IMG/VR virus record: IMGVR_UViG_2693429676_000008
From: a virus
Lineage: Duplodnaviria; Heunggongvirae; Uroviricota; Caudoviricetes
DNA length: 5,357 nucleotides
Reading direction: 5' to 3' (one strand)
Part shown: positions 2,310 through 5,357 of the stretch, piece by piece
Layout of the letters: every line of letters starts with the position of its first letter
How positions within the stretch are numbered: the first letter of the stretch is position 1
Notes under the pieces: model-generated
What the model saw: only the letters and a program-made list of their open reading frames with translations
The model's database searches: none
What the model was told of the DNA's origin: nothing
Program-made: the position numbers and the translations under genes

Positions 2310-2332
2310 GGTAATGACTCCAACTTATTGAT
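2310..2332. repeat. IS1 terminal inverted repeat (insB-proximal end)
   Basis: GGTAATGACTCCAACTTATTGAT read directly on the + strand. Confidence 0.9.
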
Positions 2333-2828
2333 AGTGTTTTATGTTCAGATAATGCCCGATGACTTTGTCATGCAGCTCCACCGATTTTGAGAACGACAGC
2401 GACTTCCGTCCCAGCCGTGCCAGGTGCTGCCTCAGATTCAGGTTATGCCGCTCAATTCGCTGCGTATATCGCTTGCTGATTACGTGCAGCTTTCCCTTCA
2501 GGCGGGATTCATACAGCGGCCAGCCATCCGTCATCCATATCACCACGTCAAAGGGTGACAGCAGGCTCATAAGACGCCCCAGCGTCGCCATAGTGCGTTC
2601 ACCGAATACGTGCGCAACAACCGTCTTCCGGAGACTGTCATACGCGTAAAACAGCCAGCGCTGGCGCGATTTAGCCCCGACATAGCCCCACTGTTCGTCC
2701 ATTTCCGCGCAGACGATGACGTCACTGCCCGGCTGTATGCGCGAGGTTACCGACTGCGGCCTGAGTTTTTTAAGTGACGTAAAATCGTGTTGAGGCCAAC
2801 GCCCATAATGCGTGCAGTTGCCCGGCAT
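2325..2828 (-). CDS. insB: IS1 InsB (C-terminal catalytic part of the InsAB' transposase, expressed by -1 frameshift)
   Basis: 167-aa translation [56 protein letters not shown]... matches IS1 InsB and overlaps insA at the frameshift window. Confidence 0.9.
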
Positions 2829-3022
2829 CCAACGCCATTCATGGCCATATCAATGATTTTCTGGTGCGTACCGGGTTGAGAAGCGGTGTAAGTGAACTGC
2901 AGTTGCCATGTTTTACGGCAGTGAGAGCAGAGATAGCGCTGATGTCCGGCAGTGCTTTTGCCGTTACGCACCACCCCGTCAGTAGCTGAACAGGAGGGAC
3001 AGCTGATAGAAACAGAAGCCAC
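2747..3022 (-). CDS. insA: IS1 InsA (transposition inhibitor and N-terminal part of the InsAB' transposase)
   Basis: 91-aa translation [91 protein letters not shown] matches IS1 InsA. Confidence 0.9.
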
Positions 3023-3054
3023 TGGAGCACCTCAAAAACACCATCATACACTAA

Positions 3055-3077
3055 ATCAGTAAGTTGGCAGCATCACC
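3055..3077. repeat. IS1 terminal inverted repeat (insA-proximal end)
   Basis: ATCAGTAAGTTGGCAGCATCACC on the + strand, the reverse complement of GGTGATGCTGCCAACTTACTGAT. Confidence 0.9.
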
Positions 3078-3412: not shown

Positions 3413-3916
3413 ATGGCGCATATACAACTGATCAAACAAACCTCTTCCGGATTACTTCTCCCGGCGACGCCGGAGAGTTGCGATTTTCTGCATCAAATCA
3501 AAATAGGTGAGTGGATACACGCAGACTTTAAGCGTGTGTGTAACTACGCATTCCACAAGCGTTTTTTCAAACTCCTGCAACTGGGATTCGATTACTGGAC
3601 TCCGGTCGGTGGGGCGATCACGCCTCGCGAACGAGAACTGCTGTCTGGTTTCGTTGATTACCTGTGCGAATCAGTAGGTCGGGAACATACGCCAGCTCTG
3701 AGCGAAGCCGCAGAGCAATATCTGAATACAGTTGCGACACGCAGAACCAGTGATACGGCATTGCTAAAGTCGTTTGAGGCTTTCCGCGAGTGGGTAGCCA
3801 TTCAGGCCGGATTTTACACCGAGCATTTTTATCCGGACGGTAGCCGTGGGTGTCGGGCGAAATCTATCGCGTTTGCGAATATGGACGAAACCGAGTTTCA
3901 GCAGGTTTATAAATAG
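3413..3916 (+). CDS. ybcN: ybcN-like (DUF1367-type) nin-region protein, C-terminally truncated by an internal tandem duplication that creates a TAG stop at the duplication junction
   Basis: ATG 3413 preceded by GGAGAA. The 167-aa product ends ...FANMDETEFQQVYK*. The same peptide recurs in the downstream duplicate and continues SVLNVLWNWILFRKFSSPEQVENVAAQLLEFA*, so the ancestral gene was about 199 codons. Family and name are from memory and from position immediately upstream of ybcO. Confidence 0.65.
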   Translation: MAHIQLIKQTSSGLLLPATPESCDFLHQIKIGEWIHADFKRVCNYAFHKRFFKLLQLGFDYWTPVGGAITPRERELLSGFVDYLCESVGREHTPALSEAAEQYLNTVATRRTSDTALLKSFEAFREWVAIQAGFYTEHFYPDGSRGCRAKSIAFANMDETEFQQVYK

Positions 3917-4117
3917 AGCAATATCTGAATACAGTTGCGACACGCAGAACCCGGGATACGGCATTGCTAAAGTCGTTTGAGGCTTTTCGCGAGTGGGTAA
4001 CCATTCAGGCTGGATTTTACACCGAACATTTTTATCCGGACGGTAGCCGCGGGCGTCGGGCAAAATCCATCGCTTTTGCGAATATGGACGAAACCGAGTT
4101 TCAGCAGGTTTATAAAT
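3712..4117. repeat. Tandem direct duplication, 2 x 203 bp (3712-3914 and 3915-4117), about 95% identical (11 mismatches counted by eye)
   Basis: Direct alignment of the two copies in the sequence. The unit is not a multiple of 3 and the junction reads AAA|TAG. Confidence 0.85.
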
Positions 4118-4215
4118 CTGTTCTGAATGTGCTGTGGAACTGGATTCTGTTCCGTAAATTTTCCTCTCCGGAACAAGTCGAAAATGTGGCCGCGCAGCTG
4201 CTGGAGTTTGCGTAA
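3913..4215 (+). pseudogene. Displaced 3' portion of the ybcN-like gene (second duplicate copy plus the unique C-terminal codons), lacking a proper start
   Basis: Frame 1 is open from 3913 to TAA 4213-4215 and encodes ...LKSFEAFREWVTIQAGFYTEHFYPDGSRGRRAKSIAFANMDETEFQQVYKSVLNVLWNWILFRKFSSPEQVENVAAQLLEFA. The only possible initiators are TTG 3964 or an internal ATG, with no RBS. Confidence 0.5.
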
Positions 4216-4505
4216 TGGTGGATTTACGTAAAGCGGCGCGGGGGCAGATGTGCACCGTCAGAATTCCTGGCTACTGCAATCACGATCCGGAAACGTCTGT
4301 GCTGGCGCATTACCGACTGGCGGGAACGTGCGGAACAGCGATAAAGCCACACGATATGCAGGCAGCGATTGCCTGTAGCTCGTGCCACGATTTAATCGAC
4401 GGGCGGGTAAAAACCAGCGATTACACCAAAGAAGAATTACGCCTGATGCATGCAGAAGGTGTTTTTCGCACACAAGAAATCTGGAGAAAGGAGGGATATT
4501 TATGA
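4215..4505 (+). CDS. ybcO: YbcO-like putative nuclease (DUF1364 family), lambdoid nin-region protein
   Basis: 96-aa product MVDLRKAARGQMCTVRIPGYCNHDPETSVLAHYRL...ACSSCHD... closely follows remembered E. coli DLP12 YbcO (M.DLRKAARG..C.VRIPG.CN..PETSVLAH). The start ATG overlaps the upstream TAA (TAATG). Confidence 0.8.
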   Translation: MVDLRKAARGQMCTVRIPGYCNHDPETSVLAHYRLAGTCGTAIKPHDMQAAIACSSCHDLIDGRVKTSDYTKEELRLMHAEGVFRTQEIWRKEGYL

Positions 4506-5056
4506 TTTACCCAACGAATACAGGAAAAAGCGGAGAACACCTTCGTCTCACCACGCTGGAAAGTGTCTGGATTCAGGGAAAACTACGTATGTGGGGGCGC
4601 TGGTCGTATATTGGTGGCGGTAAGACGGGGAATATGTTTAACCTGATGTTGACCTCTAAAAAGCTGACAAAAACGGCAATTAACGAGGCGCTCCGGAGGA
4701 TGAAAAAAGCAGGTCTGAACAAGTCTGAACTTGAGGCTTTTTTGCGGGATATGATTAACGGTAAGCAAAAGAGCTGGCTGGCGCATTGTACTGATGCAGA
4801 GGCGTTATGTATTGATCGGGTCATAAGTGAGGTGCTGGCAGAGCATCCAGGATTGATTAGCGTCCTTCGGCAACGGTATGAGGGGCGGGGGATGACCAAA
4901 CGCAAAATGGCTGAACTGCTGAATGATGCACACCCGAAATGGAGTTTAAGAACCTGTGAAAGACGCATTGAGCATTGGCTAAAGGTGGCAGAATTTATTT
5001 TGTACAAACCAATGGTTATGGCTTTTGGTATAGAGAAAAAAGTTATTGCTTTTTGA
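4502..5056 (+). CDS. Late-gene antiterminator Q, QuuD-type (Phage_antitermQ-like)
   Basis: ATG 4502 is preceded by GGAGGGA and overlaps the ybcO stop (ATGA). Shares the L.RWG.W...TSK and C.D..A..I pattern with remembered DLP12 QuuD. Followed by a promoter/terminator region and a tRNA, as downstream of Q in lambdoid and Stx phages. The longer ORF from 4382 is an unsupported upstream extension. Confidence 0.7.
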   Translation: MIYPTNTGKSGEHLRLTTLESVWIQGKLRMWGRWSYIGGGKTGNMFNLMLTSKKLTKTAINEALRRMKKAGLNKSELEAFLRDMINGKQKSWLAHCTDAEALCIDRVISEVLAEHPGLISVLRQRYEGRGMTKRKMAELLNDAHPKWSLRTCERRIEHWLKVAEFILYKPMVMAFGIEKKVIAF

Positions 5057-5100
5057 CGTAAAAACTGCTTCAATTCTTGTACGCTTCGCAAAGCTGTACC
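5053..5100 (+). promoter_or_regulatory. Candidate late promoter (pR'-like) and Q-utilisation region
   Basis: TTGACG (5053-5058) overlaps the Q stop codon and a terminator lies about 75 bp downstream, the geometry of a short 6S-like transcript. No convincing -10 hexamer could be pinned down. Confidence 0.25.
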
Positions 5101-5133
5101 GCGAGGCGAATAGCAGACATGGACATTTGAAAG

Positions 5134-5157
5134 AGCCCGCTTTATGCGGGTTTTTTT
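5134..5157 (+). terminator. Rho-independent terminator (tR'-like) downstream of Q
   Basis: Stem GCCCGC (5135-5140) pairs with GCGGG (5146-5150) around loop TTTAT, followed by T7 (5151-5157). Confidence 0.65.
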
Positions 5158-5207
5158 ATACCTGAAAAACGGCACAGGACGTTAAACGTGCTGGTGGTCA
5201 GATGAGT

Positions 5208-5236
5208 TTGCAGATGTGATGACATATGGTTATTAT
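5208..5236 (+). promoter_or_regulatory. Candidate sigma70 promoter for the tRNA gene (-35 TTGCAG 5208-5213, 17-nt spacer, -10 TATTAT 5231-5236)
   Basis: Well-spaced hexamers ending about 9 nt upstream of the predicted tRNA 5' end. Confidence 0.35.
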
Positions 5237-5245
5237 TCTGCCTCC

Positions 5246-5319
5246 GGCCCTTTAGCTCAGTTGGTCAGAGCGAGCGACTCATAATCGCCAGGTCGCTGGT
5301 TCAAGTCCAGCAAGGGTGA
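5246..5319 (+). tRNA. tRNA with anticodon CAT, ileX/ileZ-like (probably tRNA-Ile2 read as AUA after lysidine modification; elongator tRNA-Met not excluded)
   Basis: Cloverleaf assembled by hand: acceptor GGCCCTT / AAGGGTG, D-arm GCTC-AGTTGGTCA-GAGC, anticodon arm AGCGA-CTCATAA-TCGCC, T-arm GCTGG-TTCAAGT-CCAGC, discriminator A, no encoded CCA. The D, anticodon and T arms are nearly identical to remembered E. coli ileX. Mismatches at acceptor pair 1-72 (G-G) and anticodon-stem pair 27-43 (A-C). Confidence 0.75.
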
Positions 5320-5357
5320 AGTAGTCAACAAAAACTGGCCACCGAGTTAGAGTTTTT

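Follow-up and report, generated by a model that had tools for sequence, protein, structure and literature searches.

The window analyzed here, a 5,357-nt stretch of viral DNA (Caudoviricetes; IMG/VR record IMGVR_UViG_2693429676_000008), closes with a tRNA gene in which two stem pairs are mismatched and no CCA is encoded. This raises the questions of whether the tRNA is functional or decaying and whether it marks the start of a late-region cargo locus. The initial annotation posed the first question and proposed that the second be answered in the affirmative. The evidence presented below argues very strongly for another reading, namely that the gene is an ileZ-type tRNA-Ile2 pseudogene, truncated by the insertion sequence IS911 and, in genomes with the identical junction, accompanied by a deletion, in an IS-ridden and degraded lambdoid prophage of the Shigella type.

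A tRNA-Ile2 Gene Downstream of a Q-Like Antiterminator

A gene for a Q-like late antiterminator of 184 amino acids lies upstream of the tRNA on the plus strand (4502–5056) and was recognized by the Pfam model DUF1133 (356.7 bits) and weakly by Phage_antitermQ (29.4 bits). Its matches in phages carry the name 'antitermination protein Q', and the exact protein was found in S. sonnei-type and E. coli prophages. Within the interval between this gene and the tRNA, RNA folding identified a plus-strand hairpin followed by a T-run (5128–5158) that resembles an intrinsic terminator of the tR' type, with a folding energy of -18.2 kcal/mol (z = -6.35) that none of 200 shuffled sequences equaled. A simple terminator scan of positions 4950–5357 listed no terminator, but direct folding does show this hairpin and T-run. 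The gap between the Q-like gene and the terminator is where a short transcript from pR' to tR' would be expected, and positions 5083–5156 have a sub-threshold likeness (19.9 bits, E = 0.49) to IsrK, an sRNA of Salmonella prophages, that is probably due to chance. Scores for Plastid-ycf2, Trp_leader, and isrK in the window were all below their Rfam thresholds and were taken as chance.

A sigma-70-type promoter-like site follows on the plus strand (5207–5236), comprising TTTGCA, an 18-nt spacer, and TATTAT (9 of 12 matches). Alignment showed that both hexamers are the same as those of the annotated tRNA promoter 'pT' of phage 933W while the spacer is divergent. Conserved hexamers separated by a divergent spacer are the pattern expected for a real promoter, and the site is therefore a predicted equivalent of pT for the tRNA array, consistent with the earlier suggestion that the tRNA has its own promoter.

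Screening of the whole window with ARAGORN returned a single tRNA (5246–5319, plus strand, anticodon CAT). The Rfam tRNA model (RF00005) scored the same interval at 59.3 bits (E = 2.3e-11), which places the cloverleaf past the curated threshold of 29 bits and far above chance. Both predictors thus confirm the tRNA gene that had been proposed from the sequence. ARAGORN labels the gene 'Met', which is a reflection of the anticodon alone. In PMC2500205, TilS is described as separating tRNA-Ile2 from tRNA-Met by C4-G69 and C5-G68, and the window tRNA combines a CAU anticodon with both of these pairs and not with the U4-A69 and A5-U68 of tRNA-Met. Intact copies of the gene are annotated as tRNA-Ile by RefSeq. 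Judged by the determinants in its sequence, the window tRNA is an ileZ-type tRNA-Ile2(CAU) of the lysidine-tRNA class.

Comparison with known systems supports this assignment. Over 88 nt that take in the promoter, the gene shares 93.2% identity with ileZ of 933W and of many Stx phages (VT2-Sakai and others); these comparisons, as they concern ileZ, argN, argO, and pT, rest on the GenBank annotation AF125520.1, since a literature search gave no relevant paper. The window copy shares with the Stx-phage genes its place after Q and the terminators, an identical anticodon arm with A27·C43, and the same -35 and -10 hexamers, which upholds the view that an ileX/ileZ-type tRNA(CAU) occupies the position of ileZ after Q and tR'. 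It differs from 933W ileZ in an extra U in the D-loop and a G instead of an A in the T-loop, both of which characterize the window lineage, and in being cut at position 70 by IS911. With the host genes ileX and ileY, which encode the AUA-reading lysidine tRNA, it shares the CAU anticodon, an identical anticodon loop, the T arm, the D stem, C4-G69, C5-G68, and a non-Watson-Crick 27:43 pair. Host ileX has G27·U43, C6-G67, A26, U44, a full acceptor stem, and an encoded CCA, whereas the window tRNA has A27·C43, U6-A67, G26, and A44 and its positions 71–76 have been replaced by IS911.

The 3' End of the tRNA Gene Is Supplied by IS911

When the called tRNA is read literally, its acceptor strands are GGCCCTT and AAGGGTG, such that G1 and G72 are unpaired, G2·U71 is a wobble, and five Watson-Crick pairs follow. 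Position 73 is an A with no CCA after it, and pairs 1-72 and 27-43 are both marked as non-standard by RF00005. To place this 3' end in the context of related sequences, we searched 5,426 complete E. coli genomes with the final 558 bases of the window. Of these genomes, seven were 100% identical to the window over positions 4800–5316, and each match stopped at query position 517, which corresponds to window position 5316. Five S. sonnei-type loci likewise showed 100% identity over 3915–5316 and ended exactly at 5316. The identity of the window to intact copies therefore ends at tRNA position 70, and the D, anticodon, and T arms upstream of this point are 100% native when compared to those copies.

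The 41 bases that remain in the window (5317–5357) comprise the terminal inverted repeat of IS911, a member of the IS3 family, at its IRR end and in minus orientation, with the transposase genes located on the minus strand beyond the window. These bases match IS3-family/IS911 ends in thousands of records, with 41 of 41 positions identical in several E. coli plasmids and 39 of 41 identical to the annotated S. sonnei IS911 end. The annotated full-length IS911 of a Shigella sonnei plasmid starts TGAAGTGGTCAACAAAAACTGGCCACCG and ends CAGTGTGCCACTTCA. The repeat in the window, TGAAGT(A/G)GTCAACAAAAACTGGCCACC, is like that of known IS911 copies in Shigella and E. coli prophages, as is its setting in a prophage rich in IS elements, among them IS1 and further IS3-family copies.

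At the junction, the window reads GGG|TGAAGT where intact copies read GGGCCACCA. Three-way alignment gives ...CCAGCAAGGG-CC-A-CCA for 933W ileZ as well as for the intact E. coli copy, and ...CCAGCAAGGG|TGAAGTAGTC for the window. Based on this alignment, the gene proper ends at 5316 and the apparent U71, G72, and A73 belong to IS911, of which they form the opening TGA (5317–5319). The tRNA gene on the plus strand is accordingly delimited as 5246–5316, a truncated ileZ-type tRNA-Ile2(CAU) gene with positions 1–70 only, on the basis of ARAGORN, Rfam, and identity to intact copies. It does not itself encode a complete 7-bp acceptor stem, as positions 71–73 are IS911 sequence, and the 3' CCA that is encoded in the host and intact phage copies is missing.

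The IS911 end at position 70/71 accounts for the G1·G72 mismatch, the G2·U71 wobble, and the missing CCA, none of which result from point decay. In intact copies, the acceptor stem is fully paired, with G1-C72 and G2-C71, and CCA is encoded. The intact copy scores 70.5 bits against the Rfam tRNA model compared to 59.3 bits for the window, with differences at positions 71–72 only, and the fold of the window tRNA is 5.6 kcal/mol weaker, with the 1-72 pair lost. Point-mutational decay of the acceptor stem was considered and is ruled out, in that the change is a block replacement from 5317 onward by the IS911 end rather than a set of scattered substitutions. The G-G mismatch and the lack of CCA that were pointed out earlier are thus literally present in the DNA but are not traits of the tRNA. 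Both tRNA predictors and a careful human reader will call a tRNA even when an IS provides its final bases, so that the junction is misread as 'mismatches' and 'no CCA'; the point at which identity to homologs stops is a quick check that settles annotations of such IS-capped tRNAs.

Pair 27:43 Is Almost Never Watson-Crick in the Family

The second mismatch is of a different kind. The anticodon-stem strands of the window tRNA (AGCGA/TCGCC) place A27 opposite C43, and both the intact copies and 933W ileZ have the same A27·C43, indicating that it is the native state. We compiled 120 tRNA-Ile2-like genes from viral contigs (loci L017–L136) using a fixed-sequence pattern in which positions 26, 27, 43, and 44 were left free. 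Pair 27:43 was A·C in 83 of these genes, G·U in 18, G·A in seven, C·U in seven, U·C in three, U·U in one, and A-U in one. Only one of the 120 therefore has a Watson-Crick pair and 119 do not, although the sample is limited by the pattern and consists mostly of near-identical Stx-phage copies, and the counts are not independent events. Several distinct lineages with different non-Watson-Crick combinations were nonetheless represented within it. Host ileX has G27·U43 and is 100% identical in 5,424 of the 5,426 E. coli genomes; the ileX query sequence was confirmed by these genome matches.

Ikeuchi et al. (PMC2500205) identify C27-G43 as the key positive determinant for TmcA and G27·U43 as negative. 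The window tRNA, with A27·C43, is among those in which this pair is not C-G. A non-C-G pair at 27:43 is a functional feature of the tRNA-Ile2 class that stops acetylation by TmcA as if the tRNA were tRNA-Met, and by analogy A·C would be expected to block TmcA in the same way as G·U. The near-absence of Watson-Crick 27:43 pairs in phage and host tRNA-Ile2 agrees with the TmcA-avoidance role described in PMC2500205. Decay as an explanation for A27·C43 is ruled out by its presence in intact and Stx-phage copies, where it is the norm for the family. The A-C mismatch noted at the outset is thus real, but it does not hold as a sign of decay, given that it is native in the intact and 933W copies and in 83 of the 120 viral relatives.

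Deletion of the Remaining tRNA Array in Genomes with the Identical IS911 Junction

The identical 34-nt junction was identified in the IMG/VR contig L004, in L010 (UGZB01000001.1), and in L013 (CP061367.1). A search with the near-junction pattern GTCCAGCAAGGGTGAAGTAGTCAACAAAAACTGG yielded a single match among viral contigs, which was L004, a sister copy of the window, and no matches in the genome contig and metagenome contig collections. L010 and L013 are chromosome-length records (4.96 and 4.88 Mb, respectively) that encode the exact Q-like protein of the window, and window positions 4075–5357 are 100% identical to both. Sequence beyond position 5357 was therefore read from these two genomes, which are identical to the window over its last 1.28 kb.

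In L010 and L013, the element at the junction has a length of 1,249 bp and 98.9% identity to the IS911 annotated in S. sonnei. It has a terminal repeat starting TGAAGT, the approximately 1.25-kb length of the element, and transposase genes of the IS3 type, and the products of the IS911 genes at the junction-bearing loci matched Pfam HTH_Tnp_1 and rve. Its far flank reads CACTTCA|TTGTCGG, and the sequence that follows, TTGTCGGTCAGG..., aligns at 99.5% identity to the intact locus L014 from approximately position 11192. When compared to L014, 376 bp are missing from L010 and L013, comprising positions 71–77 of tRNA-Ile, tRNA-Arg(UCU), tRNA-Thr(UGU), and tRNA-Gly(UCC), as well as 136 bp. The flanks of the IS911 copy, GGG and TTG, form no repeat. 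The locus is thus unlike a simple IS911 insertion, since the 3–4 bp target duplication is absent and the flanks show a 376-bp deletion. The far junction that a simple insertion would leave (the IS911 IRL end plus 2–5 nt plus CCACCAACCACCAC) had no matches in the viral and genome contig collections, which is explained by the 376-bp deletion observed in L010 and L013. Loss of 376 bp without a target duplication points to either an IS-mediated adjacent deletion or recombination between two IS911 copies.

ARAGORN identified four tRNAs in every intact relative but just the truncated one in L010 and L013. The array of the intact relatives is Ile-Arg(UCU)-Thr(UGU)-Gly(UCC) followed by lysis genes, as opposed to the Stx phages, where argN and argO and then stx follow ileZ; the ileZ-argN-argO arrangement that had been anticipated is therefore not that of this family. 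Downstream of IS911 in L010 and L013 are approximately 545 bp and then holin, lysozyme, and Rz-like lysis genes, which are followed by terminase and head genes. Neither stx nor another cargo or moron gene was found past the junction in these two genomes, and no further tRNA was found there before holin. The inspection of downstream sequence for argN/argO-like tRNAs and cargo genes that had been recommended was thus carried out in L010 and L013 and revealed none. Likewise, no gene was called between the tRNA array and holin in the intact relatives (L014). The window accordingly has an ileZ homolog after Q with its own predicted promoter, as in the Stx-phage cluster, but runs into IS911 and not into argN, argO, and stx or other cargo. 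The end of the window, taken earlier to be the start of a late cargo locus, lies 41 bases into IS911, and the genomes that carry the junction have a deleted array and a standard lysis cassette.

S. sonnei-type loci have a glyT-like tRNA-Gly(UCC) as the fourth member of the array, where E. coli CFSAN029787 has a 'tRNA-Val(UAC)'. Comparison of the latter (L002, 6683–6754) with its counterpart (L007, 10981–11055) reveals that both its anticodon loop and its 3' end are altered, and it may represent a tRNA-Gly(UCC) copy that has switched its anticodon or is decaying.

The sister contig L004 additionally lacks window positions 5120–5294 (175 bp), which include the terminator, the promoter, and tRNA positions 1–49. 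No microhomology was detected at the break (L004 positions 1–120). This erosion suggests that the tRNA remnant has not been kept by selection. More generally, the loci of this prophage family, which includes L015 (CP014099, S. sonnei FDAARGOS_90), are full of IS1 and IS3-family elements. CP061367.1 also harbors an intact paralogous tRNA array (L012) in a prophage other than that of L013.

Alternative Explanations and Function

Three alternative accounts of the structure were weighed against truncation by IS911. Under one of them, a short-read draft was joined chimerically at a repeat, so that the junction would be an assembly artefact. Two paralogous alleles do stand in a suspicious 203-bp series in the window, which stops 41 bases into a multicopy IS, and L004 also ends inside the IS; however, the same junction is found in L004, an independent IMG/VR contig, and inside the 4.88-Mb L013 and 4.96-Mb L010, in both cases with a complete 1,249-bp IS911 whose far flank is defined, and we regard an artefact as highly improbable. 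A comparably low probability attaches to the account in which an intact but point-mutated tRNA heads a cargo locus (ileZ-argN-argO, then toxin or moron genes) just past the window. Its position and its approximately 93% identity to Stx-phage ileZ fit that account, and stx does follow the array in Stx phages, but the block replacement from 5317, the lack of tRNAs and cargo before holin in the junction-bearing genomes, and the lack of a gene between array and holin in intact L014 all argue against it. Prophage ends often carry partial tRNA genes, which would be compatible with an attachment-site remnant, that is, a partial tRNA duplicated by site-specific integration. Yet the site is in the middle of the prophage, with Q on one side and the lysis genes on the other, the portion kept is the 5' one with its promoter whereas attachment-site duplications keep the 3' part, and the break coincides to the base with the IS911 terminus, making this origin exceedingly improbable. 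The possibility raised earlier that the gene would prove to be an isolated tRNA fragment, such as an integration-site remnant, is therefore essentially correct as to the fragment, but its cause is an IS and not an attachment site.

Truncation by IS911 leaves the question of whether the chimeric gene could still yield a working tRNA-Ile2 through 5' cleavage by RNase P, trimming after A73, addition of CCA by the CCA-adding enzyme, lysidinylation by TilS, and charging by IleRS. Several features would permit this. The promoter-like site is intact, the D, anticodon, and T arms are native, C4-G69 and C5-G68 survive, the IS end regenerates A73, which is the discriminator of tRNA-Ile, and a G2·U71 pair, and the Rfam score is still well over the tRNA threshold. 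Moreover, CCA-less phage tRNAs can mature in E. coli via RNase BN/Z and the CCA-adding enzyme. On the other hand, the 1-72 pair and CCA, both of which aid RNase P and 3'-end processing in E. coli, are absent here, and to our knowledge all native E. coli tRNA genes encode CCA. In addition, the intact copy is better by 11 bits and 5.6 kcal/mol, neither a terminator nor a processing site lies downstream such that the transcript would run into IS911 antisense, most of the remnant is deleted in the sister lineage (L004), and both the intact L012 array in CP061367.1 and the near-universal ileX are at hand. We consider a working tRNA unlikely on this balance. Less likely still is that the IS-capped remnant is not inert, in which case pT would drive a transcript that begins with a tRNA-like module and continues as antisense RNA to the 3' portion of the IS911 transposase gene. 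RNase P or TilS might recognize the module, given that C4-G69, C5-G68, A73, and G2·U71 survive, and the transcript might give rise either to a CCA-repaired functional tRNA-Ile2 with a 1-72 mismatch or to a stable antisense RNA that dampens IS911 transposition.

The missing positions 71–76, the lack of a downstream processing context, the IS-disrupted prophage, and the erosion in L004 together make a pseudogene the best supported reading, and from these we infer that the truncated copy has lost its function. The intact array at L012 and the near-universal host ileX suggest that the damaged copy is not needed. With respect to the initial question, the gene is probably decaying and is not intact, although the cause is an IS911 insertion and not point mutation.

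The order of events may be reconstructed as follows. An ancestral tRNA-Ile2(CAU) would have been the first gene of a small array between the Q gene and terminator and the lysis genes of a lambdoid prophage, and the array was presumably transcribed from its own promoter. IS911 would then have come to adjoin tRNA position 70, so that its terminal TGA stands in for positions 71–73 and its end creates, apparently by chance, A73 and a seeming G2·U71 wobble. In the genomes with the identical junction, IS911 has also replaced the 3' end of the tRNA, the three downstream tRNAs, and 136 bp more. Any remnant transcript from the promoter would be expected to proceed into IS911 in antisense, with no normal 3' end and a weakened acceptor stem. 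Nothing in this locus is new in kind, as it comprises a known phage tRNA family, a known IS, and a known sort of degraded prophage. The biological weight of the truncation is correspondingly small, considering that disruption of prophage genes by IS is routine in Shigella-type genomes and that ileZ-type tRNAs of phages have long been known.

Apparent Mosaic Structure of the Window

Judging from the affiliation of its parts, the window appears to combine two paralogous prophage types in a mosaic joined at IS1. Positions 1–2288 are of the L013 type and are followed by a complete 768-bp IS1 (2310–3077; transposase on the minus strand, Pfam DDE_Tnp_IS1) and then by sequence of the L007 type. To the left of IS1 is a fragment of a DUF1367 gene of the L013 prophage type (2117–2288), while the sequence from 3078 onward is of the L007 type (Rac-site, S. 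sonnei). A 203-bp imperfect tandem duplication (3712–3914 and 3915–4117; 192 of 203 positions identical) is located in a DUF1367 gene. The two copies differ at 11 sites, and at every one of them the first has the L013-type and the second the L007-type allele. The duplication cuts the DUF1367 open reading frame to 167 amino acids, compared to 199 amino acids in relatives, and it resembles the outcome of unequal recombination or of an assembly bubble laid out in series. This mixing of paralogues makes the long-range contiguity of the window uncertain. The tRNA/IS911 junction is untouched by this caveat because chromosome-length records verify it independently.

Two further features were identified in the left part of the window. 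A hok/sok type I toxin-antitoxin locus spans positions 1233–1558, where Rfam detected sok at 1233–1408 (117 bits; threshold 59) and a 70-amino-acid hok-type open reading frame (1346–1558), the counterpart of which is annotated as Hok/Gef in relatives, overlaps it. Positions 489–1175 comprise a gene for the epoxyqueuosine reductase QueH (PF02677, 220.6 bits), a tRNA-modification enzyme encoded in the same prophage region as the tRNA array.
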